Source of the DNA: Styela clava
Taxonomy: Eukaryota
Direction: 5' to 3'
DNA length: 64,000 nucleotides
Assembly: GCF_964204865.1 (NCBI RefSeq)
Contig: NC_135251.1
Coordinates: 30,070,001 to 30,134,000, forward strand
Shown here: one piece after another, positions 22,231 through 59,663 of the stretch
How the letters are laid out: every line of letters starts with the position of its first letter
Numbering within the stretch: the stretch's first letter is position 1
Translations under genes and position numbers: made by a program
Notes under the pieces: model-generated
Database searches by the model: none
What the model was told of the DNA's origin: nothing
The model's input: only the letters and a program-made list of their open reading frames with translations

Positions 22231-23745
22231 ATGGCTAAAGTTCAAATTGTGAACGTGGAGGTATTAGATAATCCATCGTTGTTTTTCAATCCTTTCCAAT
22301 TTCAAATAACTTTCGATTGCATTGAAAATCTTTCTGATGGTGAGTATAAAACGTAGGTCTAATGTTTGATATTACTGTACCATGTACAGATGGATAACAA
22401 TATTATTATTGCAAATGGCTGTATGATCTCGCTCTACTGCCAAATTGTCAATAACATATGGCTGTATGGTATCAGTCGATGATTGGCAAGTTAGCGCACC
22501 TTGCAACCCTCAGACAATGTTTAACTCAAAATTTTGTGCATGCAGTCCAGGGATTGCTGAACTCGTTTTGTCATGGCTTTTGCAGGGTAGTAGGATAAGT
22601 TTTAAAAGACTCCTAGTGCTGTAGTGCAATAAGTCACTAGCACTACGGTACTATACAAATATTTTCTGCTTTCTATCACTGTTTGATGGTTTTGAAATTA
22701 CCTGTTACGTCTGAACATATACTGCAGTACTGGCAGACTGGTATAAGAGGATAAGCTCCAACAAAAAAGTAGCCGGGAATTATTAAACAGGCTGCTCGGA
22801 GTGAAAGCTTCCTGATATATTTTCTTAATATTTCTATTCATAGATTTGGAGTGGAAAATCATATATGTGGGATCTGCTGAAAGTGAACAACATGACCAAG
22901 AGTTGGATTCTGTGCTAGTTGGTCCAGTCCCTAGCGGACGGCATAAGTTTGTTTTCCAGGTTTGCTATATATGTTATATACTAATATGATCGCTAGGTGA
23001 AATTAAAACATCCATCCACTAAAGAACATTGCCACATGTGAAGAGAAATGTCAATTTGAGCTAGTTTATAGAACTATTAAAATGTTACTTACTACTATTA
23101 TATGGTTACTGAATTAGGGAGCTACCTTTTGCTAACATTAACTAATTTTTACCAGGCCGATCCTCCAAAAACTGAATTGATACCAGTGCAGGATGCTGTG
23201 GGTGTGACGGTTGTAATAATAACATGTACTTATCACACTAAGGAATTTATTCGAGTTGGTTACTACGTAAACAATGAATATGATGACTTGGAGCTCCGAG
23301 AAAATCCCCCTGAGAGCCCAGACTTTAGCAAGGTAAGATTTCATCAACGGTCGTTGACGACATTCTGAGCATTGTTTCTCACTGTATATTCGAACAACGC
23401 TAATGAGTAATATGCCATATTTCAATAGTAATAAATATATATTTTTTCTTTCGCCAGCTCACAAGGAATATACTAGACAGCAAGCCCAGAGTAACAAGAT
23501 TTAAAATAAACTGGGACAATAATGATGAAGAACTTGTCGCTGATGAGAATATTCCTCCGGATACAGACTTTGCTAACAGTTTAAATCACGATAATTCATC
23601 TGCATTATCGAGCTGCAATTCCAAAGCACCATTCGGACAGATATCAGGCAATGTGGCTGGCGAAGTTACGAGTAATGACAAATTTTGTAATCCCCCGTAT
23701 GAAAATAGTACGGACTCCATGGACATGCGGATGTTTGTAGAATGA
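22231..23745 (+). CDS. ASF1: Histone H3/H4 chaperone ASF1
   Basis: Exons 22231-22339, 22844-22959, 23156-23332, 23458-23745. [53 protein letters not shown]; acidic tail ending [14 protein letters not shown]. Confidence 0.97.
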
Positions 23746-23811
23746 ATCAAGTATATTGCACATTATTCCTTTCAATCGGGAGGTCGCTGCATGAAGAATC
23801 TAGATGGAGGA

Positions 23812-26800
23812 TCATTTTGCGACCGCATGGACAAGAATGTGATGAATGTAGTCAAACTCGTATGTCCTGTCAATTTCTATGTCCGTTATCCGCAAGCCCG
23901 ACACACCCTGTATAATAATTAGTTTTGATATATTAACGATTTTCTATTTTTCTTTTGAAAGCACAAGATACTGTTGTAATAAAGTTACCATTCATTAGTC
24001 GCTCTGCTATTTCGTAACAGGACTTGTGTATTGGCAGTAATTGCAAAGTTTATTATTTACTGTTGCACATACCAGTAATCCTGGTGTTATAGGAAGTAGA
24101 TCAAAATCGACCGAGGTCGAACACTTTGGTTCCAATTTCTTCAAATTAAATCCAGATATTCCCTTCCACAAAATATTTGTTTGATTCTCAAACGATACTG
24201 ATAAATTTTTTGGTCTTTCACTGGGAATAGAAGTAAAACATCAGATATAAAAACTAGCTCAGGAGGCTATTATCCTCAGTAGTAACAAATTTGTTATGTT
24301 GTTATAACAAATTTTGATATTACTGACTATATCATTGCGACAAATGATGAAAAGTTCGTTATTGAAGTCAATTTTCACTGAACAACAACGGTGTTTTGGA
24401 TATAAAGAACCAAAGAATGCAATTTTGACTTAGGATCTGTAATACCTCTTGGTGGTTCATCTATGACTATATGTGATGATCATATTGAAAATTAACATAA
24501 CATACAGTAAATATGTCCAGTCGTGTGTAATTTTATAATAACAATTACAACATCAACTTACCTGCAATTAGTTACTTGACATGACATTTTGAATGAATCC
24601 ATTGCCACAACTTCACTTGGCACACTCTTCACATCTATCCTTATGTCAGAGTGGCTAATAGGCTGAAATGAAATCAGCATGTGAAGAATGAGACATATGT
24701 TATTTTACACCAAAATAGGAGGCTCCTTTTCTGAACTTGTTGTACCGTGGATTTGATTAAATATATCTCTTTTTTATTATTAATATTTAAAATTGAGGAA
24801 ATAGCTAGGAGTTGTAAAAGATGGTGCATCGACCAGCACAGCTTAAAGAAAACTGCTCTTGGTCCTCCTAACCATGTATTATCGACTGAGCATTCTCACT
24901 TTCTAATTATTCATAAAACTTCCTAAATTTGTTTTGTACATGTTCAACAAATCTCACCGGTCTTTGAAGTTGACTAGTTTGAAGTCTTCCTCTTTCGCCA
25001 AGTGCAGTCTTCCATACAATGTCAAGCTTGCCAATCGCTGATGGTGCCTTGTCAAAAGCTTTGGATATGCTACCAGGTTTCATAATGAGTTGATATAAAT
25101 ATTGCCTTGTGTCCTTCGGCTTGAGGTATGGTTGACTCTCATAGGTGCTGAAATATATGATAATTGCCATGTTGCAAGGGATTTTTAGAAGCGAGGTGAT
25201 TAATTCAACTCTTCATAAGTATTCAATAATGAAAATATTGGGATTGAGGAAAAAACTTTTACCGAACCCTATAAAACACAGGGAACCATGACATGTTTTA
25301 TGTTCCCCAGCTGAAAAGCACTGTGATATACATAATTTACATATCACATCAAATAAGCCCAGAAAGTTGTTGGCACAGAAAAAAAAATCTTACCTTTGAT
25401 CGTCAATGGTGTTGAGAGGCATTGTAGTATAAAGAGATGATGGTTCAAAACTAACTTTCTCAATACACATTGCACTGTTTGTAATGTTCTGGATTTGAGC
25501 TTCAAGGAAAACTTCATGAGGCTAGCAATAAAATTTCAATAACAATATCAGTTTTAATCTTGGTGAATTTTCTGTAATAGCTCAAATTCTTTTTATAGTA
25601 CCAATGGAAGTTTTGGACATAATTAATCACTTTTAATTGAACAATATACACATCACTTCTGCTATATTTTTATGAAACTAATATAAAAATATTATATTCA
25701 AACCTCAGTATTATAAAATTTTGTTTTGACATCCAATGGCTTCAATACTTGAAACTTGAAGAATTTTCGGAAAAAATTTTGCACACCTGCATTTTTATAT
25801 GAAACACTGCAAACCAATCTGAAATAAATAGGATTTCATAATTCATCAGCATCAAATGATGTGTTTCGTTTAAATTCTTTTTCCATCTCTGTATATATTT
25901 CCTTTTTTGTACAAAAAAACAATCAACTATAGTACCAGAATCTCAGCAAATCCGTGAAATAAACTAAGTGTGTGTGGTATTTCAATATAGGGAATTAAAT
26001 TCACAAAATTCCAGTACATGTGAGTTCCAAGCTCCTTTACTTCATGTCTCATGACATCATCAATGGAATTTTCAGGCGATAAAACGTCTCGTGAGGCAGG
26101 CTGCGTTAAGCTAATTCTCTGCGAGCCAGTTTGCAGATCTGCCTATAAAAAAACAACGATCAATTTGAATATTATCACAATTCAAATATTACTGAACAAT
26201 GAACATCTTCGGAAAAATTCAAAACTATTGCCTTGAATTTTTGTAGTAAAGGGAGTACTTTAATTGAGGCAATATTATAATTCAGGTGAATTTTTTTGCT
26301 GCATACAATTCTCAAGGCAGATGGTTACTCCCTTTATTAATATATGAAGCCCTTAGGGTTATAAATGTATAATATATAAAAAACCTTGACAACGACATCT
26401 GTTGCTTCCTGTGTACTATCATTATGTACACTGATGTAACTGACGAATGTTTCACCCAGAAAAATATTTCCAAAGCTTTGTGGAAGTGACAACAGTTGTT
26501 CTGAAACAAAATTGCACTTGATGTGAATAATAGTTGACATTAAATAAATTTGCCTGGACGAAGCAAATGCACATCTACACAATGAGCCACTGACTGCCAA
26601 GAGTAAATAATATTGTTGACTGGCCTTTAAACAATGTACTATGCAACAAGAAAGATATTCCAGGGAGGAAGAAATAAATTTGCATAGAATATCAAATCAA
26701 GCATGCTTACCTGTGCATAATCCAGATCCCAAATCTCCAATCTTGTTTGATGAATTTGTATCTTCAACATGTGATAGTGAGATAGGCATCAACATTGAAG

Positions 26801-32599: not shown

Positions 32600-35589
32600 T
32601 TGTAGAGCGACGCAAGCTATGAAGTGAAATTGGTTTTAGCGGGTTGAAAGTTTGAAACTAAAATTTCACTTTTCCAGTTTTTTCTCTTTTCTGCTATAGC
32701 CTTTTCAATATGAAAAACCACCGTCTGATATTTTTCAGATTTAGTCCACTGTACAATAATATTCATAACGTTGACGAGTGAATGTTCGTTACTAATCTCG
32801 CCGTGGGACAGTCTGAAAATATTTGTTTCCTATGGGGAACAATAGCCGGGGTTCACTGGGACATGTTTACGGAATTCTTTGAAAAAAATATTTTGGTTGA
32901 ACATTGATTACAAAAATATTAAATATCGAAATTTGAAGTCCCCCTGTTCTTCGGACGATTATTTACTTATTTTTAAGGGCATACTTCGTTGAATTGAACA
33001 GAATGTGCGCCAGGGTTTGTCCGAATGTGCCCAACAAGGTGAAAAGGTGGGACGCTTGACAAAGGTTTTTCAAGGCATGTTGGTGGTAGGATGTGTGTCT
33101 CAAGGAAATTTCTTAGTCGCCGAATAAAAACCACATTCACCACGCTCTGTATTAGTCCAGCAAAGTGAAATGAATGTGTAGTAGAATAAACGGCTCAAAA
33201 TCTGCAACAACAAAAAATGTCCCAACCTTTCAAACTTTTCCCTACATAAGCATAAAACGAGCAACGATCTTGACTTGGTGTAAGCAAGCTTTATGTCGAG
33301 CAAGTTGTTTGATCTATTTTTCCCACGTGTTATTTTTACGTCGAAATGATGTCAACTGTTACTTGCTGTTTTTCATTTGGTTAGCGATTTTGACTATACT
33401 AGGTTGATGAATGAAAATCTGAGTTCGCATTCATTACAAGTCATAACAATGGGATGTCCGTCTCTCGGCGTCAAATATCAATAAAATATATTTTGCTGCG
33501 AATGTACAAGGAATGTTGGTCGGTGCAATCTAAATGAAGGTGCTAATATCTCTTGGTGAAAATATCGGTTGTGCAGAAGTATGCAGGCGCAAACATACGT
33601 GGGTGCAGAGTTAATGAAACCGCTGATGGTACCGTTCAGTAATTCTAAGAAAGTCCCTAATTCAAACAACTTGACATTGTTAATTTTGAGTATTAGTCGT
33701 TATCTTCACGTGTTTTGAATTGAAATCACTAAATTTGGATCACTTCTTGAAAACATAGTACCAGAACGGTCTCATGATCAAAGATATATTTGTTGTGTTT
33801 ACAATGGTGAAAATTCCCGCCTGTTTTATATCTAAGTGTTTCACATCTTCAAATTTTATAAAGTAAAATACACCCTCTTAGCCTCCTAACAGGCCGAATG
33901 TTAATCTCATGTAATTTGCAGTTCGCGATGTTGGTTGATTAACTGCCAAAGCTTTTTAAAATATTCTTTTAAATTTTGCATGTTATTTTTTTACTGGATG
34001 GAAAAAATAAACTTGACCATGACTATCGCTTGGTTTTTGCGCTTTCGCCTACGTAAACCCTATGACCTATCCTATATGGTTGTTTTAGAAGAAATCGGTG
34101 CATAGGGGAACATTTAGTTTTAAGTGATCATAGTTTTTTTGTGCTTCTGTCTTTATCAAATATTTATATTATCTTTCCCACGGCATAGCTCCACATATTA
34201 AGCTCCCACCTATAACCCACCCCAAATGCGGGAGACAACTGTTCAAATCCAAGGGCTTGCTACTTAGATTTTGTAATGTCATAAAGCTTAGACGCCTACG
34301 AAAGGGAGAGATTGGTAAGTCTACATCGTCGAACTTGCCAAATAGGCAGTTTCTATAGTTGACAGAACCGCCCGATCAGTGAAACGGATCTGACTTGGTC
34401 ATGGAAAAGCAATTAGCAAGATCAGCGGCGCGATATGCGATTAACGCCCATATTTTATTTTAACAGCAATCCCTGAGGCGTTCGGCTCCATTACGCATGC
34501 ATGGCGAATGTTGTTCGCCGTCTCTCCAGGCCATAATGGTGCGCATGCCTGCGCGATCGATCACTTTTGGTCGCACAAGCTATTGTTCACGTCTGAAGTC
34601 GGTTTGTTTTCATTTCGTTGGTCCTGAGGTTGCGATGTATTTCGGAAGCGCTTCTCGGACTTTCTTCGTTTGTCATACCCTGCTGGAATCATTCAGCCTT
34701 AGTGATAGACCGCGTCACTGATTTTGAGTAAAGCTGACTATAAGACGACAGAGCAGGTTGGTCGTGAATAGGAAATAAGTATTCAAGGCCTACGCAGTAT
34801 ATTTATAACGTATGCTTGAATATCTAGAAATGTGAATAATGTGCTGAGTAATGTAATCCATTTCCTCATTCTTGTGAGTTCAGGTTGGAATAGCTGATAA
34901 GACCAGGCAGACGAAAAGGCAATTGATAAAATAGGACATCATTGGCAATTCGCGTGGCTGTCAGAATAATACATTTAGATACGTTTCATTTCCAATATCG
35001 TCATGCAATTTCTAAGCAATGCCCCAACGACTGTGACGGGATAGGGTTCACGAATATTATCAATATTCATTTTACAGCACTGGCATGTATGAGAGATGTA
35101 TGTTTTAGCATAAAAACATTGTGTTGATAGCCTTTATATAGTTGCATATCGATGATAACCGAGACCGCAATTTTTTAACCTCGTCAGTATGGTATACAGG
35201 AATTACAGTTTTCGTATTTAATATGGTCGTGGATATTACCTTCGGGTCTCACAGCCAAGGATGGTGCATGGAAAGCTATACAAAATAACGCGGAGGAAAT
35301 TGTGTTCAGTATTAACACAATAGAACCGACGAGACAACTTCGTTTCCTCAATTTCCGTAAACATTAATACCAATAATAAAGTCAGTCATGTTTTTGTACG
35401 TTCTATTTGTGGGACTTTTTGTGCGTATTTAAAAGCTATTATGCTTTTTAATTGGTATAATTGAAAATCTTTTAAATTTAGCTTTAAATTTTGCTGTTAT
35501 TATTTGCGGAGAACAACGAATACTTCATATTTATGTTACTTGCGCTGAGTTGCGCCCTATATGAAATTCTCGTTTCTGACTTGTTTCTA

Positions 35590-35959
35590 CCGTGTTACCC
35601 CGGAAATAAGACCGGGTCTTATTTCAAATTTCTTTCGAAAAATAACACGAGGGCTTATTTTGGGGGGGATGTCTTGTATTTACATTTATTAAAAACAAAG
35701 TTACAAAGTATAGAATTACGAGATTTTCAAATATACAAAATGTAAAGACCGATATCCATTTAATAAAAATAACACGTTCTCGACTCTCACACGTTTTAGA
35801 TTAATTATTTAAAACGTGTAGGAGAGATTTCTTGCTATCGACTAGGTAAAAAAAAAATCTTAAAGGTCTTATTCTAGGAGGAGGGATTATACTAAAATCA
35901 TTTTCAAATTCAGGTTAGGCCTTATTTTCAGGCTAGGTCTTATTTTCGGGGAAACACGG
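35590..35959. mobile_element. Tc1/mariner-pogo (Tc2-like) MITE
   Basis: TA-flanked TIRs ccgtgttaccccggaaataagacc / ggtcttattttcggggaaacacgg; second copy at ~54418-54804. Confidence 0.8.
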
Positions 35960-36120
35960 TAGTTTTTGATTTTTAGAATTGCGTTTCGTTAATTCCGCGG
36001 TTTCGAATGATTTTCTTAAACTTATGGCTTTTGTTTCTAATTTTCACAGTGAATGTCAGCTTTTAACTGGTAGGCCTATTGCTTCATGTTCAGCAGTAGT
36101 GTTAGTTGAAATATAGTGAT

Positions 36121-39100
36121 ATGGAGAAGAACGATAAGCCTTCAACTGAACAACAGCAATTGGCTTGGAGCCAAGAAATTCCAAATTATGGAGACAAACT
36201 GCTTAAGCGTTTGGAAGAATTTCGAAAGACTACAATTTTGTACGATGTTCGCGTTCGCGCTGAAGGCGGAGAATTCAATGCTCACAAAATAATTCTAGCT
36301 GCTTGTGGCGGAATGTTCAGGTTAGATGATTAAGCAGTTAATTGGTAATTTTCTTGTTCAATGACTATTTATTACATTTACAGCGGAAATAATCGTGTTG
36401 TTTACGATGGCCGCAAAGGAATAATTAACATTATTTCGTTAATATAGAGCTTAGAACAGGCGATTATTATATTTCAAGTCTTAAAATGCTCTAATTTGGA
36501 TACTGGGATAATAAATTGTTGCGAAAGATACACATCTTGAATTTTACACTTCGAATAAATGTGTTGTTCACTTCAAAATTGATTCCTTTGAGGTTTTGTT
36601 AACAAACCCGCATATCTGGTTTGTAAACTTGCGCGGATTCCACAAATGAGGTAATTAAAATTCGAGACTGATTAACTTCATGAATTCCACCCGAGATCAT
36701 TAAATTGTTAATTCCCAAAATATAAAAGTCTCGTTTTATTTTTTTTAAATAGAACATGTTTCATCGACGAAAGTAAAAAGATGATATCCAGTTCAATAAC
36801 GGAATTGAAACTCAATTGCCCAGCACAAGGCTTGAAACCGATAATAAAGTTCGCCTACACTGGAGCATTAATTGTCACAAAACGAAACGCTGTGGCAACA
36901 ATGATAGCTGCTGAAGTAACAAAGATGAGAGAGGTATGTTTATGCATTTGCTAAGTAGCACTTTTTCAGGCGCTGTCTTGAATTGATGTTGAAAGTTGAA
37001 AAGGATCATCATACATTGACAATAATTTACAAACAGTAACAGCGAGTCTTGCTTGCTGAGATAGCGCGGTTAAAAGAATTTAGTATGCCGAAATATGATA
37101 CATACATTTAGTATAGTAGGCGGTCAAGAAATAATTTCAAAAATTAGTTGTTTTATGGGGTTTTAGTCGAATGCATACTTATACTTTGCGGATTTGCTTT
37201 GGAAATTGTTGAACGTAACCATGTGGTTCTATGAACTGGTTTTTATTATACATACTCGTTTCAATTAGAAATCATTTTAACGGATCATACGTAATAGTGA
37301 TGACTTCAAACATGCATCCGCGACAGTTATACCATACAACACCATTATAGGATTACAAAGCAGTTCGGTTTATCAGTTGTTTCAAGTGAAATCCATTCGT
37401 TGGAACCAGGGTAACTGGCTCTGCATTGTTTAACATTGCTCGTATAAATGACTTTCACAACATGATGAGCTTGTGCGTCTGGATCAGATTGCCATCAATG
37501 CGTGACTCAACTATCACATCATAAAGCGGCGTGAATGGATGTTTCCCGTAGCATCGATTATTTTGTTTATTTCTGTTGTAGTTGCTTAGACACTTCTTTC
37601 CCTCAAGGTGGTTAAATATATTACGTGGTTAAATATATTAAAAAATGAAGGTTTTGACCATGCAAAACAGTTTGTAAACGTTAACTCTTCAAAACACCCT
37701 TGGAATAAGTATCAAAACTTCTGCTGAAGTGCCTGGGAATTTTTCTGGTGCCAACTGCCAAGGATCGTGGAAACGTCCATAGTTCATGGGCTTTATTGGT
37801 CGATCAATGCCCATGGACCTCAAAGAGGGGAACTCGTTGTTTAAATATAAAGCCGTGTCTACTGAAGTATTAGAACAAATGGGGCGAATGTCCGTCCAGA
37901 TGGATAAATTATGATATTCGTTTAAATTTTATACAGCTACTACGCAAAACAACAGAGCAGGGGTCGGGAACCCATGGCTCGCGAGCCATATATGGCTCTT
38001 TTGGTGACGGCATATGGCTCCCAGAAAAATCTGTTATTCTAAGATTAAGCTTACTATTGTTACTAGACTTCAAACTATTTTATGGCCAAATTTGGCAAAA
38101 AATTCCCAATGCGTTTGAAAACGCGGGCCCATCGCATGTCTATGTTATGTAAGAGAATTACCAGACAGGCATTGTGACAAAACATGGGGATTCTGGAACA
38201 TATATTGTGACATCACAAAGCGATAGAGTTTTAAAATACTACGGAGATGCCTAAACGAAAAAGGGTGATAAGTATCGTATATTTCAACTTGGGCTGCATG
38301 TGAGCAACCGTTCAAGGCCCGCAGCAACAACATGCAGCATCAGAAGTCACATTAAATGTATAATGACATAGAATGTGTTGACTTTTGAGTAAACTTTTCA
38401 GGCCTGATTAAGTGAAGAAATGTTATATGGCTCGCATGGAAATGCAATTGAAAATATGTATATTTTAGGGCTCTCTTGACCAAAAAGGTTCCCGACCCCT
38501 GCAACAGAGGGTTAATTGAAATTAGGAATCTGGTCAAAATAATGTAACAAAAAGATTATTAATTTCCTTCAGGTTCAGGAAATTTGTGCCGACATTGCAT
38601 TAAAAGAATATGGATGGATTATATCTTTCACTGACGAAAAGAATTCAGCCGTTGTTGAAAAATTACAGAACGTGTTGTCTGCACACGCATCCTGTTTCAA
38701 GAGTTTGGAAGAAATTGCTGTCGCACAATGGGATGATAACAAAAATCTACCATTTTTAGAAGATATAAGAAGTAGTTTTCCCGATTCTGTTGAGACTTAT
38801 CAGAAACTTGCGGTATGTTTATCTGGAGCCCGCACACTGATTAATAACAACACTAAATCCAACGAGGCACCAGACGCGGAGTCCGAAAATTCTGGTAAAA
38901 ATGTCAGTGAACCGGTTTTGGAGGCAAAGAGTCCTTTAAAAAGAGTAGAAATTGAAGAACCCGTAACTAATGGAGCACCCGATAATGTCGACTCAGGAAA
39001 ACCACAAGTAACGCTGAACAATGAAAAAGAAATATCGACTCAACAGATTTCTCCAAAACCGGCTGATAGTGTCAAAAATGTACCTGCCTGGCCCCCTGTG

Positions 39101-40028
39101 AGAAAGCCTCGATCATCCGTCAAGACAAAAGCCGCACCGCCGCCACCTTCACCAAGACAGCGGGAAGTAGCACCAAAGTCTCCTGCGGCTCTGCCGCCTC
39201 CTCGTCCACAAAAGCTACCGACAAAAGTTCCGCCTCCGAGACCAAAACCACCAGCGGTGAAAACGATTTCAGTAAGTTAGCTAGTAAAAATTAGTTCGAA
39301 ACCAGCATTTTGACAAGACAACATTACGAAAATAAGTTCAAATTACATTTGATACATGAGCATATTTGTTGCATTCGAAATTTGCGTATCAGCGATACAT
39401 GCGTGGTATTGATGAATAGTGATTACTGGTATGGAATCATTGTACCAAGGGTTTTGCCCTTGTGAGTTATTTTAGCAATTAAAATTTGATTCAGATTTCA
39501 AAATTTTCACTCTGTGTAATTCCAGAGTAACTGATCAGAGAAATTTTGAAACCCTGTTGCCGACATCCTCAATGCACTAGGCCTACTGTTAAATTTATTA
39601 TTTTCAGAATCGATTGTGGTATTGATACTTGGGCAAAAATCCCCCTGTTAGCAAAACGGAAATTAATTCACGCTCGAAGCAACAGGGAACTAAGAACAAA
39701 ATTAAAAATAAAATGTGAATGTCTTGACAAGGTTTGAATATTTTGGTATAAAATCCTGACCCAATAGGGTTCTGGCAATCTGCGCCCAACACTTTTGATT
39801 TTTGATATTAATTACGAGAAACCAATAGCATATAAAAATAAAACCACCATCTTGGAGCCAATTCGAACTAGCGTAGGTTAATTTTAGAAATGTTTCTGAC
39901 GTTTAGGACAACGTGATAATGAATGGAACGCTAACGTTATACTCATGCTTTACCAGGCTGAAGACGGAAACTCTTCCAACAATGATGCGGAAGTCGATTA
40001 CGACGACAGCTTGAACCCGTTTGCATAA
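36121..40028 (+). CDS. BTB/POZ protein with Pro-rich tail and C-terminal acidic NPF motif (no kelch or zinc-finger domain)
   Basis: Exons 36121-36320, 36753-36933, 38573-39271, 39957-40028. BTB motifs LYDVRVRAEGGEFNAHKIILAAC and IIKFAYTG. The donor GTAAGT at 39272 joins in phase to an exon preceded by CTAAC..ctttaccag, giving AEDGNSSNNDAEVDYDDSLNPFA*. Unspliced read-through would stop at 39280. Confidence 0.85.
37958..38501. mobile_element. hAT (Charlie-type) MITE in BTB gene intron 2
   Basis: TIRs caggggtcgggaacc / ggttcccgacccctg; perfect TSD caacagag. Confidence 0.9.
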
Positions 40029-41185
40029 TACGGCTTTGTCAATGGTCGTCATTGCCGGTATCCACATCGCGGTAAACACTGTGGACGGATGCTTTTTGAG
40101 TACTGAAGAAATCTCCACAAAGCTCGGATTTATCAGTTGTACAATACTTCTATGTGCCTCGCAGGTTCGAGGTTCACACAGAATTGGCACCACTACGTAA
40201 AAAGCGCAGGATCCTTACAGCCCTATTTTTTTAACATATATATATATTAGTCAAGTCACAACACGTGAGCATACATCGGACAGTTCAGATAATATAAACG
40301 CAAATATAGCAAAACTACTAACATTTCTTTCTTGCAATGTCAACACCTTACGTCTTATTTAATTTCAAATAATAGTCACGCATGTAGTCTACTTTGTATG
40401 TTATATTTATATAATGTTTATTCGATGTTCTGTATTTCTGTCAGATGTGATCTTTATAGGTAATGGGATGGGTCAGTTAGCCTCTTGAAGTGCAGCCGAT
40501 TATCTGTACCATAATGTGTACCAAGAACGTCTCCGACACTTGTCACTGGATGAGTGTCTTATTCATTTATATTCCTGTTTTCTAAGAAATAACCATTTGG
40601 CAAAAATGTGACAGAAAAATAACTTTACTCAGTTGTCGTTGCTTATTTTCGGGATTCATCTATTGTCTTGTCGTCCATGACTTCCTCTCATTCAGAGCGT
40701 GGAGAAATTGCTGAAATAGGCTTTTATGCAATATTATTTTGAGTGTGTGTTCCTTGCAGCATCCCATACCGTATTATATGGTAGCCGTTGTATCAAGCCC
40801 ACTACCCGACTCCGTGAAGAGCAGGTGTGTGTAACCTTTAATACAGGAGGGCCAGATACAAATAACTGAGTGAAACCGGGGGCCGCATAGGCTTTCTAGT
40901 AGTTACAAGCACAAAAGGTTTGGTTATTGATCTTATGACATGCGCTGTTTGCTTCGCACAAGCTAGCTGTTGGGATTGTGACATCATAGGCATATATAAT
41001 GAATTGGAGGCTTTACAACGCAAAGGGATCGGGATTGCTAGCATGCACCAGGTTGAACATAATTTAAAAACTCATTCGCGTGACGCACACCGCTCAAATT
41101 GGCACTTCTCCGCGGGCCGCACAAATATTCCTTGTGGGCCGCATTTGACCCGCAGGTTACATACCCTTGGAATCTAGACTTAGAG

Positions 41186-41586
41186 CAGTAGTTCCAAAAT
41201 TTTTTAATATATTTACCCCCAAATTGAATTGCCAGTGGCTCATTTACCCCACAATTTTCGGTGCGTAATATCACAAAGTCTAATACTATCGCCTATGCCC
41301 TATTGCACCTTCCAATTCAATTTTAGAATGTCAAACTTGTGTTCGATTAACATTTTAGCCTACTATCTATATAGAGAGGCACTGTAATGATGTATCTGCC
41401 ATGAGCGCGACTGACTCCGTTTTGACTTAGCAATGCTCATTGACGAGATGTGTAAGTTTTTTCGAAGATCAGCTAAAAGGTCGGGTATTACAATGGAAAT
41501 TGTTGATCATTGAACGCCTGAATTTTCCCCTGAAACTATCAAATTACCCCTTCAGAGGTGATTAGCCCTAGTTTTGGGAACCACTG
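41186..41586. mobile_element. Decayed hAT MITE
   Basis: Ends cagtagttccaaaa / ttttgggaaccactg; flanks acttagag / gtgtagag. Confidence 0.6.
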
Positions 41587-45438: not shown

Positions 45439-48400
45439 TTACCAGATAGGAATGTAACTGTCAATTTTTGCCCGATGTCGTTGCGCAATGCATTCAGCAA
45501 TCCAGATTATATTTCGGCATTCCTGTTCTTTCAATTTAACATAGGAGTAAAACACCCCGTAATGAAACTGTTGCAGGAAACTATTCACATTAAGAGAAAC
45601 CTAAAACGGAATGCAGTATAACAGTCAAGGCAAGAAATTCAATATCAGCTTCCCATTCTTGACGGAAGAATATAATAGAACAATTTTTTCTCATTGAACG
45701 GTTGAAAATAAAGAATGAAAAAGATTTATCATCATTCAAATCCACTTACCTCATGCTCAAAAAATTTATCTTCAAGAGTTTTATCACCAGGATTGTTTCC
45801 AGTTCCATCAAATAGAGGTTTGTATTCCTATTGGAAAAAAAATAGAGAAATTTGCAAAGAGGGTGAACTTTTCCCAGCATTCTATCTTCATTAGCACAAA
45901 AATATTTCTTTTCATTTATAGCAAATAAAGTTATGAAAAGCAAAACAAAATGAAGCATTACATTTAAAACAAGTACTTGGAAAAATTAACTTTTGTAGTC
46001 ATGGTACAAAATAATGAAATGAGATCAATTAAAAATAAGATTAATATTTGCCTTTTATCCTGTGTACTTTGAGATAATTAAATGGAAAATGTGGCTTGCA
46101 AAACACTTTCTCAAGTATTTGGTGCTATAAGTAACAATCAACCAGGGAACTATAAATTGAACTTAAAGAGGTTTTTGAATGAAATAATATAGAAACTTAC
46201 AGCATAATATTCTGCAATTGCTTTTACTGAATCATATTCATCGGCTTGACTTAGAGCTGCAAGTCCATAAGGATGAAGCTTTCCACATTTTGGATATAAC
46301 TTGGCTCTGTCTTCCTTTGTTAGTTCAGTACCGAATGAATTAATCGTGATGATAAAGGATCTGCGATCTGCCTCAAACTAAATGAAAATATTGTTAAGAT
46401 TGTTGATTATTATTTTACTTCAATAATCACTGTTTGATTCAAAATGTGACAAAGGTACTGATAAGCCTGGTATTACAGAATCGTAAAATTATGACCTTTT
46501 TTGTTATTGTATACATTCGAAGAGATTTGAAAATACTTATTTTCTTCGTTGTTTAATAAGATAACATTTTAAAGATAGTATAGTAATTACCCTGATGGGG
46601 TACATCCTAGCAAGTGTCAAATTTGACTCCTACTTAAGAAAAAACGTATGGAAAAGAAAATAACAATTTATAGCCCACAAGTTACGTGTAAATAAACTAT
46701 TGCGGCATTATCTACAGCAGGGCTTCTCAACTGGCGGACCGCGGTCGAATCAGGACCTTTCGGGTATTCGATTCTCATAACTCTTTATTTTGGATCATTA
46801 GCCCCACTTTTGAAGTTTCCTTTTATAAAATCATATTTATAGATTTTAAAATATATATGAAAAGAACTATAACGTCATAACAAACAATCTTGATTAGCTA
46901 ATAATCATTAGTCAGCCGAGGGGATTGCGTGTTTGAGGATGCCGAATATTATGTCTGGAAAGTCCGGACCCAGATATTTTTGAAGTTTTGTATGCGGACC
47001 TTCGGTAAAAATAGTTGAGTAGCCCTGATCTACAGTACCAGATGTGGACCTCCAGAGGTATGTGTACCAAGATGGCGCACAACCTGAACATAGTATATGT
47101 ACCAGGTTAGGGTTCAGGCTGTTCCCCATTTTGGTGCACATACTTCGGGAGCGCCCCAGATGTATGTATGAAAAAACTAGTACAATCTTTTATCATATTA
47201 TACATAATACTCATTATATGCCATGAAATTGATAAAAATTAAATATTTATGAGAAATTTCAAATACAGCATTTCAAAAAAATCATCAGACTTGCCTCGAA
47301 CATACAGATTAATTAACAAACCTCAACCATAGGTTTTTTTTGACAAATATTAGGCTAGTTGCATAATAATTCTTCCACTTACTGCAAGAATTTCACACAT
47401 GACTTCTGCAGTAGCTCCTCCTGTACTTTTACAAAAGTTGTAAAAGGATTCGATGTATGCTTTGTAGAGAGTATTTCGAATGATTTCTATGTTCAATTCA
47501 TCAAGATCACGTTCAGAAATGCACTCTTGAAAAAATGGTGCTGAAAACATAATAAAAAGAGTGATGTTCCATCCAGATTAAATTGAGTTTTGTTATTGAA
47601 GTATATTTTAGTAAATTCAAAAAAAAATTATTTAACTCGTAAGATATGGTAATCTATAGGACATCACATAATCATAAATAGGTTACTATATTGGGCAATT
47701 GGTAATCAATAAGCAGGTCAAGCACAGATCACTTATAGAAAGCTAGTTGTGAAAAGATACTAATCCAAACTAAAAAAAAAGAAAATAACTTGTTTAAGTA
47801 CTTATTCTTATATACCGGTAAATTCATTTTAATTACAAACAGTGCATTGCTATCAAGCATATATAATTATGCTTCATTTATTGATAAAATATTCAATAAT
47901 GTAACAACTTGGAATGGGGAGTTAAATCTACTGAAAGAATCTTACCTAGAGGTGTATCAACAAGTATTGCATTGAATAATTCAGCTGGAGTGCTTGCAAT
48001 GGTTACGGTTTCCATTTGATCAAATATTCCCAATGGATGACATTTGGATACAAGTTCAGAAAGTTGTCGTTGATGAAGTGTTCCAGTAATCAATAGAATA
48101 ATGTTGTCGATCATATAACTATACCTGCGATATTGAGAAAGTATTAATATGACCCAGTATATATATAAGTATATATAACAGCACAAACATATGAGCTCTG
48201 CTAAGAAGGAAATGTGAGTAACGGTGTTGAAATATTTTGTCCTAATCTGTACTGTAGAACAGAATTATTAAGCAAACATTGAATATTAAAGCTTCAACAT
48301 TTAAAAAATGAAAATAAACACAAATATAACAAAATTAGAAGTAAGTTACGTTATGTAATCCAAAAATGTTGCCAATGGTTCATATGCATGATTACGGATA

Positions 48401-48845
48401 TAGGTGAATTCCAACACCAGTTTGTCTCTCAATCTGTCATCAATTACTGAAACAGTCAAAGGTGAAGGCTCATTCGCTAAGAAATTCCCGTAATCAGTTC
48501 CTTGCAGATGAAGCTTTAGATCTAAGAAATGTTATATTACGATATTAATAACATTTTAGGGAATAAATCAGAAAATACATATCAGTTATAATAGAGTTTT
48601 ACAGTTATAGAGCTTTCTGAGATATTATTATTTGACATTGTAATCTTGTAACTTTCTTCAAAATTATTTTTAATAAATCATTGTGATAACTACATAATAT
48701 TTATCCTACCTTCCAATGTTTCACACTGAGTAAGCTGACGATAGTCTTCTTCTTTCAAAACACCATCCTTGAACCCACGAACCAATCCTTCCAAGAATCC
48801 AGAATCAACATTGAAAAACATTTCCGAAAAACCAATAGCAGCCAT
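45439..48845 (-). CDS. ATP6V0D1: V-type proton ATPase V0 subunit d
   Basis: Exons 48845-48710, 48521-48350, 48124-47946, 47540-47383, 46377-46201, 45827-45750, 45600-45439. [95 protein letters not shown]. Confidence 0.97.
46718..47027. mobile_element. hAT MITE in ATP6V0D1 intron
   Basis: TIRs cagggcttctcaac / gttgagtagccctg; perfect TSD atctacag. Confidence 0.88.
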
Positions 48846-49669
48846 ATTTCAAGAGGTTATTGGCTTATTACTTATTTTCCTGATTGAATTTTAAAATATA
48901 TTTTGTAAATGTTATCATAAAAATACCAAAAAATACAGTACTATCAGACTGTAAGTATACAAGTATGGTAACAGATAATATTTGCGATATATTTGAAAAC
49001 AGAGCAGTGACGTTTTATGGGTCGTCAACGTCATCAATTATAAAGCTTTTATTTCAGGTTTTTGATTTACTTTTCTTTTTTTATTAAGCAATTTGTACGC
49101 TGTAGTTGTGTCATGCCCAACTACAACAGGCAGACAGGTGCTCGATATTGTTTGATTTTTTTCAGAACTGCAGCTAGATTTTGGATTTACAGTTCAGTGT
49201 AGTTTGTTTTGTTCATGTGAGCACGCAAGAGTCAAACATGTCAGCCGCCGCTGCAGGGTTGTCCATGTAACTACTGGTTGGTTACGGATTACATCCACCA
49301 TCAAGTCTGCAATGCAAGTACAGAAGTACATGCATCTGAGTACAATTAACTGATCCCAGAATCCCATACAAGGACATGGACTCGTACAGTCAGACGGGAC
49401 CGGACGATAGACTCCGGTTCGCTATATGCTAAGTCGTCTTATCGAGGCTAGTTCACTAAACGCCGTCAAGTACTTTTAGTTGGCGTGGCATAACCAATTT
49501 TGCAGATATTATTCCCAACTCTCCACCTTACTACGCCATCCCAAAATAACGTCACTACAACACCACATTGATGAAATAAGGCCCGCTAAAGTACCGCTAT
49601 GGATTATAGTCTGACACGTGCAGACGATCACCCAAAATCAAGCAGACTATTTCGAATATTTTATTTAGG

Positions 49670-50511
49670 AATCAATATTTCCGAATCTGATTCTATTTAG
49701 TATAACATCACATTATCGTTAAGTTTTTTCCAAATTGGGAGAACTATAGCATAAATTATGATTAAATAACAAATAACAATAATGAACATGAAAAATGAGT
49801 GAAGTTAGTAGAAGAAAACATTGAATTCATGCCCAAACTACAAAATATACTAGAGAATATTTATTTTGTTACATAGAATACACTCAGTTATATTTACGTA
49901 TTACATAAATTTATGTTCACCAACAATACCAAATATATAGTGATTGTTTCCTCTAGAGTTAACCTTTAAAATTCATCCAAATGCTGAAATGATAAACTTC
50001 AGTAAATCATGCTTTAGTACCGCTTGCGCTGTGATTTTAAAGAAAGCAAATGATTTTAAAGAAAACAAGCGAGGGAAGCATCGCATACCGTACCTATGTT
50101 TTTAATGAGGAATAATGTCAGAATGTTGTTGTTATACCGGTACAGTTATAATGACATTACATAGGTAATTTAAAGGCACGCTTATATATGACATATTTCT
50201 GTATTTGTAAATCTTCTTAACATTTTAAATAATCTTAATAAAATTTAACGAAACCATTGGTTCATCTAAGAAAGCTGTGACCCATATGGAATATAACTTA
50301 CGACTGTACGACTTCTGGACCTGGGAATGCTGTAAGCGTAGAGTAAATATACGGTTTTGGTCGACGATGAGACAACGCTGCGTCGTGCAATCGCCTCGTG
50401 CTATTTAAATTTTTTTTTTTTTAAATAGAATCAAGTCGTTTTTCTCAAATTGCTTCAATTCGAATTGACATTGATTCGAACCGCTTCGAAATTCTAAAAC
50501 TTACATCCCTA
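49670..50511 (-). mobile_element. Inverted, one-end-truncated copy of the MITE at 14672-15521
   Basis: Reverse-complement similarity along its length (ccgaatctgattctatttagtataacatc ... aaacttacatcccta). Confidence 0.75.
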
Positions 50512-51700
50512 TTTGAGGTGTTTAGTGAACATGCGCCGTCTAATCGACATTTCTTGTCAGCGGCACTGAGTGATATAAATACAGAAATATATAAGCTAGG
50601 GTGGCTTACCCACTTTGCGGCCACGACCTATTTGCGACCATCAACTTCATCGATTAAATTAATGCCGAAAAAATTAACGAACCGCGACGATATTTCGCAC
50701 ACGTTATCGTCCACTCATCCCTCGTAGCTCTGCAAAATTACACTAAAATGCGGCCACAAACAAAAAAGTTACGACCGAAAACCCGACCGAAGAAAAAAAA
50801 CGGACCATTTTTGTCGCCAACTACCCATTGTTCCTTTGAAAAAGCCTAAAAATCCACACAAATATAAGAGATAAAAAGATGAAACTTGGCAGGTGGGTAG
50901 AGTTGTGTTTCTTTTAACCATCTTTGAAGTTTCGCGTTTTTACATTAAAAAGAGGGGGAATACTGGAATAGGAGGGTGCGCATTTCCAATACGTCGATAA
51001 TATCTTTGTCGACCAATTTGCGACCACCGTGTTTTAGTCTGTTTGATTGCTGTGATGCGGTGCTTTGTTTATAATTTGAAGAGTTTTGTTCGAAATAACC
51101 ATGTTCTTAAAATATATGACGGTCAGAAATGCAATAAGCCAATTTTTTTCACGCATGGCTGCGTATGCCCTAGTCTCGACGCAGCAGAAACGATGTTCAA
51201 GGCTTGAAATCCGTGGTCGCACACTGGTTGTTCGGTCGCAAATATGTCTTCAGAGTGTCGTACTTTGGTGGTTTGTATAGCTTTAACCCCTGTTCGTAGA
51301 AAGTTAATTCGAGGTTCAGCGTGTAGAATAAATGCCAATGCACCTACCATGAAAAAATTAACGGGTTAGAAATAATGGTTTTTGTTTTATAGCGGTTTGA
51401 ATGAAATCGTCCGCAGACTGGCTACACCATCCTATACCAGTACTGCCTTACCAGCTGCAGAGCTGCTTTGCAGCCTTAGCATTTTGTAACATCTGAACAC
51501 TGGAAAATCAGTCAACTGTCTGACTGTGACAATATCCAAATATTAACCTGAAGTTACATAGCTACATGCCGGTACCGTATGTTTTTGAAGACTGAATTGT
51601 ACCGTACGTATGTACAGAGCTAGTTCTGACGGTTTGCCGAGCAAATCCGAAATCAATAGCTAACGAAAACGGAAAAGCTGTCGATCTCAACCTGATGGAA

Positions 51701-51718
51701 TCACATGACATCACGTGA
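51701..51718. promoter_or_regulatory. Tandem MiT/TFE (M-box/CLEAR) E-boxes, candidate ATP6V0D1 promoter
   Basis: tcacatgac-a-tcacgtga, 2.9 kb upstream of the ATP6V0D1 ATG. Confidence 0.45.
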
Positions 51719-53207
51719 TCAGAGAAATGCGCAACAGTGGCCATGTTCATGTCGGATTGAGTGAAACGTTGTGCATATTTTTTATGTTGTTGTGCTTAGA
51801 ATTCCTTTTTTTTTTCGTTGTAAGAAAAAAAATCCATTTTCTCATTAACTACTGGACCACTTGTTTTGAAATTTTCAGTGTTTGAAGATTGTATTTGTCG
51901 CTACTGGACACGAGAGGGAGATTCGGTTCTACTAAATATATGTATGTTTATTTGCCTCAGAAATATAACAGTAGCCTATCTGCATAATAATTAAACAGTA
52001 AAACAGAGACGGGAATACATGTTCAAGACCTTACTGGCCTAAGACACAGATGTGCGACATGCACCCCGACTAACAATTAAACAATGTTAAAAAAGACAAT
52101 ATAATAGGCTACTGTACGTGTTTTGGCAGTAACAATTACAAATCAGCGGTAGGTTAACAATGACGTAACAATCGGAATTTATGCCGCCGCTCAGACAATT
52201 TTTTTGCTCAGACTGATTTAAGCGTGGTTGCCTTTCCTCGACTTTTGACCCCCAAAAAATTCTTTCTATTATTTACCATTGCAAAATTTTCGGGGCTATT
52301 TTAAGAGTGCTTTTGTGAGTTGGCGCCTGTAAAATAGGGTTTGTGTTTCAAACCATCATTATGATTCATCGCATACAACAATCTGTTTTTTAAAAGTACC
52401 GGTAAAGAATTTTAGCCTAGTCTGCGAAAACGAGGTAACGTTACGATTACGACCACGCTTGAAAATCTGTCTGAGCTTACGGTCTGAGTGAGAAAAGTGT
52501 CTGAGCGGTTGCAAAAAGGGAACCTTGTTACGTCACTTTTTGCATCTTGCTGATTGGCCAATGTCACGAAGTAAACAAGAAAGTCGATGTTCGGGGAGAG
52601 GTCCATTGCCTCTTTTTGATAGTTTTGTGCGTTATTAGTCAGTCGTTAGTTGCGTTTCCAAGAAATAGTTGTATATCAAATAACTTAATTATCATTATGT
52701 CTGCCGAGGAACTTCAGTTTAGTTACAACAATCAAAAATTGAAACTGAAAACGCTGCGATAGACTAGCCTCTAAAATCAGTACGTAAGCAGCACGTGGTC
52801 TACTCTATTGTTTTGAATAATGATAGTTTTGGACATGTGAGTGAATGTGCCATTTATTTTTTGAGTCGGCGATGATTTTAATATTTCATGTCGGTTGTAA
52901 TAATTTTATTTTTATTTATAAATTAATACCGCTAACTTAAACTGATATTGTCATTAACGACGCCTCGATAACGATAAAATACGCGACAGATACTAAATTT
53001 TATTTCAGAGCTATTTTATAAGCTCTAAATTGCAAAAAAATGAGAAAATTTCCCGTTATGTTCGGTCACTATCGAAACATGAAAACAATTAATTAGGACA
53101 CAATTTACTTTTATATTTATTGCCGGGGACGCACAAACTATCTTGACTAAATTGAAATAGACAATATTATTTGTGTAATATCAAAAACATCCTCGACGTC
53201 TTATAAG

Positions 53208-54415
53208 TAGGGTTGTGATTTCGTGACCAGTTTTTGAAATCCCGGTATCGTGATATCCCGGGATTGAGCCGTATAATCCCGTGATTAAGTAAAAGATTGA
53301 AACAACTTGCATGACAAGTAACAACTTGCATGAAAATCACGTATTTATTTCATGTAATATCGACGCAGAAGTATTAGAGCATCTAGGGCAGTGGTTCCCA
53401 ACCTTTTTTTTTATATCGCGGCACACTATTTAGCTCTTTGAATATTAGCGGCACACCTATCATAAAAGCACGAACATTTACTACCCATTAAGAGTGCGAT
53501 AGTCGAGCGCGAACAAATGGTTAATAGTTATCGATATTAGAACTGTTTTCTTACATTAATGTAAACGAGAGCGTCTTCGGAGCATCTCACATTATTGTAG
53601 AAGTTGCGCACCGCCCCTCCATGTTACGCCCTTATTATTATCGCATGCATTCTCACTTACAATTCAAGGTTTTTCTCATTGCCAAAATCATTCAATAGTG
53701 TTATTGTCGGCATTTGCGAGAGAAATGAAAGTGGCAAACAAATTGTATTTCATTACAACAATTAATTATTATCGCTTAAAACACTTCATTTCATTGCATC
53801 AGTGTTTGGACTACCACGCGTTTCGCCAGATTACTGGCGTGATTACAGATCGCAAGGGTGGTCAAAATAGTACATTTTCATCGAATCGCATAATTTTAAC
53901 GAATTGTCGAATATCGGGTTGAATTCGGAATTTTATTCCGATTTTTAAATTTTGGGTCAGCTTTGATCTTTTTTTGTCACCGTTTGTGAATTAACCGTCC
54001 CAATTTTAAGCTAAATCAATGAATATTATCATTTCTGACGGCGGAATGCGGATTTTACTTTTCAAAAGTGTGACTGTTTTATTTACTGAATGACATTTTG
54101 AGTTCAAATTATGATTAAATAAATCAGTAATAATGGCAATTCTACTAGTCAAATAATAATTACTTGGTACAATTTGAGAAAAATTTCGCACAACAATTCC
54201 ACTTTCACTCACACTGTACGCGTGAATGGCTTTTTTTCAATTAAGTATTGAATAAAATGGTATGTTAGTCGTTGGGTATAACCAACCATTTGTGAGAATA
54301 TCTATATGTGGGTAGCAAAGTCTTAAAATCCCCGGATTTTTACGAAATAATTGCGGGATCGGGATTGGAAAAAAACAGTCCAAATTTCGGGATCGGGATT
54401 CCCCGGGGTCCCAAC
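53208..54415. mobile_element. Composite of nested hAT-type MITEs
   Basis: Outer tagggttg..atcccg subterminal repeats at left, cgggat repeats ..caacc at right; an inner cagtggttcccaacc end at ~53389. Confidence 0.55.
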
Positions 54416-54417
54416 CA

Positions 54418-54804
54418 AATAAGACAGCGTTTTATTTCGATTTCCTAAAAATAACACTAGGGCTTATTTGGGGGGGGGGAGGGGGGGTATTTATGTGTCT
54501 TATATTTTAATTTATCAAAAACAAAATTATAAAGTAAAGAATTACGATATTTTAAAATATGCAAAATATAAAAAACCGATATCCATTTACTTATGAATAA
54601 CACGTTTTCATGCAAAATATCTGCAAAACATAGATTATTAAGCATTTAAAACGGGTAGGAGAGCTAGCTTGCTAGCGACTAGGTCAAAAAAAAAATTCGC
54701 GTTATTGACTAGGTATTATTTTAGGGGAAGGCTTATATTAAAATAATTCTTAAAATTTAGGCTAGTTCTTTTTCAGGGTAGGTCTTATTTTCGGGAAAAC
54801 ACGG
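54418..54804. mobile_element. Tc2/pogo-like MITE, second copy
   Basis: Colinear with 35590-35959; right TIR ggtcttattttcgggaaaacacgg followed by TA. Confidence 0.75.
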
Positions 54805-54998
54805 TATCTCTGTGCTCTCCACCAAAGTGACTATCACTTTGCTCTCCACCGACCCGACAAGTGGTTTATTGGTTGTCACGGCGACTGGACAGCTGATTGT
54901 GAAATGGATTACGACTGCGCTGACTTATTGACACACACGCGACTCGGAAACGGCACTGAAAAGCAGGGAAGATTAAATAGCGCACAGTGCATTCAAAG

Positions 54999-57900: not shown

Positions 57901-59663
57901 TGCTTAATTTCATTACTTTCAAATATACAACGTTTTAAATTATATTTCGTATTGATACAACCAGTTAGATTTTTCAGTTCTGTTTTTAGCTCAAGTGGAG
58001 ACACAGCTCCAGTTGATTTGTGTGGATTACCTGAACATGTCATCAACACTCTTCCAATGATGAAAGTCAGACCTGGAGCTAAACTACTTGTGCCTGGCAA
58101 GCAATGTAGAATATGTTTACGATCATACGAGGTTGGCGAATATGTGAGAAAATTACCAGAGTGTAAACATATATTTCATCGAGAATGCATTGATGATTGG
58201 CTTTCAGAAGATCACAGGTAAATTCAAGGAACAAAAATTGTATTTTTTTTCATGTTGTTAAACGACATTTTTATTAGCATAAAATGCCAAAATTATTCCA
58301 ACATTTTAGCTTCGTTTGGGGAAGTTACAATATAATTTCAGTGAAAGTACTTCTTGGTTAGAACATAAAAAAATGAGTATTTGAAGTATTTCTAAATTTT
58401 AATATATCTAGACCAGAGCATTGGCTTATTAAAAATGTTTTTGATGCCTCAATTTTATTTCAGAATATTTTGCGTACTATTTTGAAAAAAATTGATATAG
58501 AAAGTCTTTCACAACTTCTTACTGCTATACAGGAGATGTCCAATTGATAAGAGACTGGTGGTGGGAATGCATCGTAGACAACAAAGTGCAACTTCAACGA
58601 GTAGACAGAGAAGCAGGCAACAAGATATTGAAGCAACTGATATGTCTACAGAATTAATGATTCCTGGAATAGGAATTGCAAAATTACAGAATATGCAAGT
58701 AAGTTCTGTTAGGAATTTTGTTGTTGCTGATTCCAATTACTATTTTGTATCATTTTTGAGTCAGTCTCTTGGGCATGGACAGATTGAGATTATTATATTT
58801 CCCATTCAAAATAATTTTTTGAATAAAGAAGAAATGTTATATTATGAAAATTGGAAATATGAACTTATAAAACATCACTGTTGTTGCACACTGAATAGCA
58901 TATATCTACGTCCAATGATTTTTTGAGCTTAATGCAGATGACATTTTTATTGTCTGTGAAGCTGTGATCTGTTGCGACAGTTTTTCATATAGCCAAGTAC
59001 CATGGCAAAACCATCATGGTGGGAAATTGTACACTTCTGTCTGCATTCAAAATATATACTTTGATAATCTATGTCTATGACATTCGAAAACTTGATATAA
59101 ATATGGCTGCCACACTCTTATCTGATTACATTCTAGTAGTTCTGATGCCGTGAGTACCATTTTCCATGGGTATAATTGAAAATTGTTTATGATTCAAAAT
59201 GTTCGTAATTTTCAATATTATTCAAAATCAGAATGACAGGAGGTATAATGCTGATGCAAGGAATGCAAGCAACATAGACAATCGAACACTTTCAACTGCA
59301 ACTAATTATCAGTCATCAAGTTCTGTAAACCCTGTTGGAATCACAATTGAAGATGTTGTGAGTGGCTGTCACACACTTAGTTTAAGCAGAAAGGCCGAGT
59401 TAAACCATAGATCACGTCACTTATCTCTTCCTCCTCAAAACCCGTTGCATGTGAGACAACGAGCTAAAAGTCGATCAAATCATGCATTTACTCCAAATGG
59501 AATTGCAAAAGGATCAGTTGTCCGATCTAGAAACCGATCATTTGAACGGAAGACAGCTCCACATTCTTCCCAAGTAGATCTATGGTTGACGGGAAATTCT
59601 CCTTTGTCCGGAACGGATTTACAAAGTATTCAACCCATGACATTTGATGATGACCTGCCATAG
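54999..59663 (+). CDS. ZSWIM2: E3 ubiquitin ligase ZSWIM2/MEX (SWIM, RING, ZZ, RING)
   Basis: Exons 54999-55148, 55541-55658, 55989-56087, 56458-56566, 56866-57097, 57452-57678, 57990-58217, 58533-58698, 59232-59663. LLREMGPTSFLLKEE, CTC..CKHICW (SWIM), CPICQEEL..CGNSVHIKCMKIWAEH, ZZ CNGC..KCTTC..LCNTCF, REITDNDYDLLLQLD, QCRICL..CKHIFHRECIDDWL. Confidence 0.93.
56190..56433. mobile_element. GG...CC MITE with 8-bp TSD (Merlin-like), long TIRs and TTAGGG-like motifs
   Basis: TIRs ggtgctcccgaagtatgcgaaccaagatggcggacatcggaa / ttccgatgtccgccatcttggttcgcatacttcgggagcccc; TSD aaccattc; related copies at ~47046-47156 and ~63217. Confidence 0.8.

Follow-up and report, generated by a model that had tools for sequence, protein, structure and literature searches.

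A spliced BTB gene of the ascidian Styela clava and its tail of putative EH- and SH3-ligand motifs

What does a BTB protein do if its BTB domain is followed by neither kelch repeats nor zinc fingers? The question is raised by a gene on the forward strand of a 64,000-nucleotide stretch of the Styela clava genome (RefSeq assembly GCF_964204865.1, contig NC_135251.1, positions 30,070,001 to 30,134,000), hereafter the window, from whose first letter all positions are counted. An earlier note on this DNA, made from the letters alone, had described the product as a BTB protein whose substrate module is replaced by ligand motifs for SH3 and EH domains. The protein belongs to an ascidian family and is likely to be a two-armed scaffold, dimerised through its BTB domain, that brings together EH proteins (EHD and Eps15 type) and syndapin-type SH3 proteins on membranes engaged in endocytosis or recycling, probably without Cul3; a dimeric scaffold acting on the endocytic machinery, one of two roles suggested in the earlier note, is the likeliest role. 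The dimer, its partners, its location and its independence of Cul3 are inferred as follows: a BTB homodimer would carry two long tails, in which NPF would engage EH domains with avidity and the proline motifs would engage SH3 proteins such as syndapin, and the dimer may cluster fission or recycling machinery, touching membranes through its partners and recruiting no Cul3.

Gene structure and transcripts

The BTB gene, with four coding exons, is real and spliced. Its exons are as follows.

34989..35380, + strand: 5′ non-coding exon, whose GT..AG splice 35380>36050 is seen in a single contig, from run X1 (one of four runs)
36050..36320, + strand: contains the start codon, at 36121, and encodes residues 1-67, the N-terminal strand and the first half of the BTB domain
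36753..36933, + strand: coding exon 2; residues 68-127, the second half of the BTB domain
38573..39271, + strand: coding exon 3; residues 128-360
39957..40028, + strand: last coding exon; residues 361-383 and the stop
40029..40819, + strand: 3′ untranslated region, ending at about 40819, an end that the contigs do not show

The coding parts (36121-36320, 36753-36933, 38573-39271 and 39957-40028, all on the + strand and separated by GT..AG introns) give a product of 383 residues plus a stop, whose C-terminus reads DAEVDYDDSLNPFA with YDDSLNPFA as its final residues. A search with exon 3 found the NCBI protein XP_039259988.2 (S. clava LOC120336389), which consists of the same 383 residues (100% match), and a search of the genome found the gene as a single copy.

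Contigs from eight of the 15 listed sequencing runs (X1-X7 and X10) were aligned to the locus. Seven of these runs (X1-X7) are transcript-like, their RNA status being a guess, as none is on record as RNA. In all four runs compared, introns 1 and 2 are spliced out. The joint 39271>39957, by which the earlier note had added a small last exon to the open reading frames, is listed in six of the seven transcript-like runs, from three studies: directly in X1, X3 and X4, and in X5, X6 and X7 on an allele that differs by two synonymous changes beside the acceptor. It is spanned with at least 31 letters on each side in four runs (X3, X4, X5 and X7); the contigs of X2 break at this joint without listing it, and X10, in which coverage of the last intron is even and DNA-like, does not show it. 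Neither result that the earlier note named as refuting its reading came about: NPF is conserved, and no splice to other exons, such as the acceptor at 39608 (NRLWY*) or distant kelch exons, is among the joints listed, from contigs that drop rare forms; the contigs of exon 3 continue into the terminal exon and the 3′ untranslated region. Four allele changes are listed in the last exon, all of them synonymous.

The donor of intron 3 overlaps an in-frame stop (GTA AGT TAG), as the earlier note had pointed out in proposing that intron retention would give an isoform lacking NPF. Introns 1 and 2 also reach in-frame stops, within 4 and 7 codons (3 to 7 codons for the three coding introns), and low-depth unspliced contigs occur in all three introns, crossing the intron 3 donor at a depth of about 5-6 in X2, X4 and X6, contig depth being no measure of transcript level. 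Because early in-frame stops and unspliced contigs are common to all three introns, the isoform without NPF has no specific support, and regulated retention of intron 3 was rejected on the similar unspliced contigs of introns 1 and 2. Between 39271 and about 45270, none of the + frames encodes another NPF.

Short high-copy repeats, probably non-autonomous elements, lie at 35590-35960 in the first intron, at 37950-38500 in the intron preceding exon 3 and at 40820-41200 past the 3′ untranslated region.

Motifs of the tail and their candidate partners

Named members of the family were found in five ascidian species: S. clava, Phallusia (P0002, 508 residues), Clavelina (P0003, 573 residues), Ciona intestinalis (P0154, 462 residues) and Ciona savignyi (P0007, a tail-less protein of 258 residues that is probably incomplete). 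Two further members, P0008 and P0010, come from marine records. The tail counts given below include the Styela protein and leave out P0007, making six members with a tail; these proteins span 284-573 residues and their tails are very variable in length. In the Styela protein, the tail and its motifs are located as follows.

38864..39271, + strand: linker and proline-rich tail (residues 225-360), predicted to be disordered; low predicted local distance difference test (pLDDT) scores, no secondary structure
39095..39112, + strand: motif 1, PxxKPR, residues 302-307; a loose PxxxPR type with an uncertain partner, in five of six members
39122..39184, + strand: motif 2, basic-APxxP, residues 311-319 with a degenerate copy at 322-331; resembles ligands of the syndapin SH3 domain, in five of six members
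39194..39208, + strand: shorter PPPRP
39230..39262, + strand: motif 3, PPPRPKPPAVK, residues 347-357; the best-conserved proline motif, in five of six members
39999..40022, + strand: motif 4, YDDSLNPF, residues 375-382, with NPF at 40014-40022

Five of the six tailed members share four motifs in one order (PxxKPR, basic-APxxP, PPPRP[KR]PPx[VI]K and YDDxLNPF), while the remaining tail aligns poorly. The sequences PPPPSPR, LPPPRP, VPPPRPKPP and the terminal NPF are present as the earlier note had described them, and the conservation it looked for in a terminal YDxSLNPF is found in the YDDxLNPF of these five, with PPPRPKPP conserved as well. NPF itself occurs in all six, in two copies in five of them, and in none of 109 other BTB hits of at least 200 residues. 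The label of class II PxxPxR was wrong: the strict motif is absent from the Styela protein and has no positional conservation in the family. In five relatives at least one NPF is followed by an acidic run, 3 to 6 of the next 8 residues being acidic; the Styela protein has a single NPF, ends one residue later and has acidic residues only before it.

In shuffled tails, NPF arose in 1.6% and PPPRP in 0.7% of cases, and motifs 3 and 4 in none of 5000. A genome-wide search with the pattern Yx[DE]xLNPF was not informative (15 matches, against 18 in the control). The argument from the motifs rests on their conservation among the aligned sequences, not on chance rarity. At 39090-39098, overlapping motif 1, three linked differences (W300S, one silent and V303L) are found in all seven transcript-like runs but neither in X10 nor in the window; both alleles leave PxxKPR intact.

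NPF is bound by all EH domains, those of EHD proteins preferring acidic flanks (PMC13282721), a preference that PMC3667729 also supports. MICAL-L1 binds syndapin 2 through KKKPAPLPP and KTKKRPAPRAP (basic PxxP) and EHD1 through NPF (PMC3667729). The consensus of syndapin ligands is +++APPPP (PMC4003247); motif 2 fits the loose basic-APxxP pattern in five of six members and the strict consensus only approximately. A MICAL-L-like protein of the Styela genome carries KPRART, YRKSLNPF and KKKRPAPAPP, and the presence of so similar a motif set in the same genome favours reading the tail as a series of EHD and syndapin ligands of the MICAL-L type. By analogy, the tail would work as the motif region of MICAL-L1 does, a disordered region with an acidic-flanked NPF for EHD1 and a basic PxxP for syndapin 2 (PMC3667729); the Styela protein has a BTB domain and no CH, LIM or bMERB domain, and the likeness of the tails is one of motifs. 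When residues 344-383 were submitted to complex prediction with an Eps15-like EH domain (L002), the score was 0.04 against a mark of 0.34, from a tool run without alignments and unvalidated on peptides. Eps15-, Reps-, EHD-, intersectin- and syndapin-like genes of the Styela genome, named by their domain architecture, are candidate partners.

The BTB domain, the helical unit and their ancestry

Two elements distinguish the folded part of the protein.

36754..36792, + strand: alpha3-beta4 loop, residues 68-80; phi-x-E is absent in register, and the model shows a short beta-hairpin
38612..38863, + strand: family-specific helical unit, residues about 141-224, with helices at 152-170, 189-195 and 197-224; no BACK match in sequence

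BTB (PF00651, residues 31-135, E 3e-16) is the sole Pfam domain of the Styela protein and the only one above the cut-off in the six members scanned, which bears out the absence of kelch, MATH and C2H2 domains stated in the earlier note. Kelch repeats were not found in Pfam or phmmer tests of family members, nor the C2H2 pattern in any of 27 family sequences or by Pfam in the six members; Pfam likewise reported no CH, LIM, bMERB, ankyrin repeat or FYVE finger in these six. For BACK, PF07707 was absent from the six members, a profile of 46 BACK stretches gave a best E of 0.02 on the 27 family sequences, and hhalign returned a probability of 0.2%.

The structure model, built from 37 sequences (pLDDT 71.9 overall, mostly above 90 at residues 41-170 and 191-220), predicts a long-form BTB fold whose alpha3-beta4 loop forms a short hairpin, three more helices as far as residue 224, and disorder thereafter. 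Long-form BTB, helical unit and disordered tail make up the architecture of the family, throughout which the helical unit and the remodelled loop are conserved. The modelled BTB matches dimeric BTB structures, and its conserved features include the N-terminal strand and helix that homodimeric BTB domains typically have. Foldseek ranked BACH1, BCL6, ZBTB7A, KLHL11 and KLHL3 about equally. In VIA-align, KLHL3 (Z 12.7, root-mean-square deviation 3.8, 136 residues aligned, model 23-221 on chain 32-169) tied with BCL6, ZBTB5 and PLZF (Z 12.2-12.5), and KEAP1 gave Z 11.5, a deviation of 4.1 and 146 aligned residues. The protein resembles the KLHL and KBTBD adaptors (KLHL3, KLHL11, KEAP1) in having a long-form BTB followed by helices, with structural Z of 10-13, whereas its family has no kelch repeats, no detectable BACK and no in-register phi-x-E. 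Its best BTB matches by PDB sequence and by Foldseek are to the BTB-ZF, BACH and NAC1 proteins (BCL6, BACH1, ZBTB7A), which mostly lack phi-x-E too; in contrast to them, it has no C2H2 or other DNA-binding module and carries trafficking-type motifs instead.

The ancestry of the domain was approached with a tree of 105 of 139 BTB domains (34 unlabelled rows omitted) over 123 columns, in which the family sits on a long branch. In a quick tree the family fell within the BTB-BACK proteins (SH-aLRT, the Shimodaira-Hasegawa-like approximate likelihood ratio test, 98); a careful tree united the seven members in a single branch (100/100) at an unresolved fork (14/81). The kelch-family-like BTB of the earlier note therefore has the nesting in the quick tree in its favour and the careful tree, which leaves the family unplaced, against it. 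With the family unplaced in this way, the replacement of a substrate module is a supposition. All matches in the Atlas were below the 0.9 mark. A tentative and rather doubtful history for these proteins is that tunicates rid a kelch-type E3 adaptor of its substrate propeller and its Cul3-binding surface, kept the BTB purely for dimerisation, put a new helical unit where BACK had been and added a row of EHD and syndapin ligands like that of MICAL-L, so that part of a ubiquitin ligase became a bivalent scaffold for membrane remodelling.

Cul3 and the alternative explanations

The earlier note had also suggested a Cul3 adaptor. Phi-x-E is in register in none of the seven family members, compared with 35 of 40 BTB-BACK controls: 18 of 21 parsed BTB-BACK-kelch proteins (of 25) and 17 of 19 BTB-BACK proteins (of 21), with 1 of 17 for BTB-ZF proteins (of 19). 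The AM pair preceding the F is likewise found in none of the seven, and the sequence pattern of the 3-box in one of seven, against 17 of 25 controls. In KLHL3, the BTB domain supplies about 80% of the surface shared with Cul3, and any one of the substitutions A77E, M78V and E85A was enough to abolish measurable binding (PMC3616122); the 3-box contributes to Cul3 affinity (PMC3597819). The missing phi-x-E and AM residues make it unlikely, as far as sequence can tell, that the Styela protein binds Cul3, and the adaptor claim is further weakened by the lack of a BACK in sequence.

Several points weigh against a Cul3-independent trafficking scaffold. The Styela protein is a reduced member with no acidic run after its NPF, and a preference for EHD is argued from its relatives; P0010 is without motifs 1-4 and keeps acidic NPFs alone; motifs 1 and 2 singly arise in 2.5-7% of shuffles; and the motif patterns were drawn after the alignment had been viewed. 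Motif 1 fits a loose PxxxPR and not the PX(P/A)XXR core of CIN85 (PMC2702278). No membrane-binding domain was found in the protein. A looser pattern picks up an I-D-E that is shifted from the register by three residues, in Styela alone. When the model is aligned with KLHL3, KEAP1, KLHL22 and SPOP, its post-BTB helix overlaps the place where the 3-box begins, the rest of BACK being unmatched. Finally, rabankyrin-5 (ANKFY1), which like the Styela protein has an N-terminal BTB and an NPF, one that binds EHD1 (PMC3498075), is endosomal and works with CUL3 (PMC5703617); it differs in its FYVE finger and its 21 ankyrin repeats, one of which holds the NPF, whereas the Styela NPF is in a disordered tail beside SH3-type motifs.

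The overlapping helix and the example of ANKFY1 would suit a non-canonical Cul3 adaptor, in which the helical unit replaces the 3-box and the tail recruits EH or SH3 substrates or places the ligase on endosomes. The quick tree, an Atlas lead to a BACK cluster (score 0.84, below the mark) and the cullin genes of the genome, which are broken into short exons, point the same way, but the loop has neither phi-x-E nor AM and is modelled as a hairpin rather than helix alpha3.1, profile tests find no BACK, most of the known KLHL3-Cul3 surface is on the BTB domain itself, and the careful tree leaves the family unplaced; such an adaptor is unlikely. It is less probable still that the BTB heterodimerises with, or tethers, another BTB protein or other partner, the protein then being a cargo or recruiter with functional motifs: no candidate partner was identified and the strand and helix of BTB homodimers are conserved, against which may be set the dedicated surface suggested by the conserved loop and helical unit and the 56 BTB gene matches in the genome. 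That the motifs of the tail arose incidentally in low-complexity sequence, or are what is left of a decayed gene, and play no part in trafficking, might be supposed from the disorder of the tail, the range of protein lengths and the database labels 'proteoglycan 4' and 'rickA-like', but it is very improbable given the ordered conservation in five of six members, the confinement of NPF to this family among the BTB hits compared, the synonymous changes of the last exon and its splicing in three studies.

Distribution and significance of the family

Styela, Phallusia, Clavelina and Ciona span three ascidian orders. A profile of residues 128-222 matches family members alone among the 172 proteins compared, other hits sharing the BTB domain only. 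No non-tunicate orthologues were found among the matches listed (150 of 697 hits in the homologue survey) or these 172 proteins; a profile search scored 7996 candidates, with known members among those it missed. The family is likely to be restricted to tunicates, to judge by the sequences compared. Ten additional family fragments end their match at the position of the first intron, and a metagenome scan found first exons of the family at two of 30 loci, in DNA pieces that do not contain exon 2.

Database records name the members 'proteoglycan 4', 'rickA-like' or 'uncharacterized', labels that would miss a trafficking role. No published account of the family, or of a BTB domain with such a helical unit and a MICAL-L-like tail, was found in a literature mostly without subscription papers. 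The BTB of KCTD3 and SHKBP1 (Sb1) is of the short T1 type. These two proteins have WD40 repeats, unlike the Styela protein, and KCTD folds reach merely Z 5-6 against its model. KCTD3 is recruited by the SH3 domains of CIN85. BTB proteins with NPF or bound by SH3 domains are thus already known, and no principle would be overturned; the architecture of helical unit and MICAL-L-like tail appears new. If the scaffold is as proposed, the gene would be an unannotated component of endocytic recycling in the sister group of vertebrates, with an orthologue in Ciona, and a clean case of a BTB domain that gave up the work of a ligase adaptor or repressor for that of a trafficking scaffold and naturally lost the residues that contact Cul3.

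Neighbouring genes and other BTB and NPF genes

On the minus strand at 1404-7480 of the window, a ricin-B-type lectin match (E 3e-6, under the cut-off) and kringle exons probably belong to one mosaic extracellular protein. Other neighbours, at 23407-26696 and 47893-62082, match ASF1 (weakly), TRAPPC13, the V-ATPase d subunit, a RING-finger protein and a group-7 glycosyltransferase. Among the window's frames of at least 110 residues there is no BTB-kelch or MICAL gene.

Elsewhere in the genome, about 25 tandem BTB genes at G000:C1:23019509-23304492, many of them single open frames of about 560 residues, look like a recent intron-poor expansion of the BTB-kelch type. Four tandem BTB genes with frames of about 710 residues lie at G000:C4:19657875-19689092 (L015), where a repeated BACK-like region appears to be followed by kelch-like repeats. 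A 194-residue frame at L041:1420-2001 (G000:C14:5360502) contains YPDKLNPF and a second LNPF, and may encode an EHBP1-like or other NPF protein.

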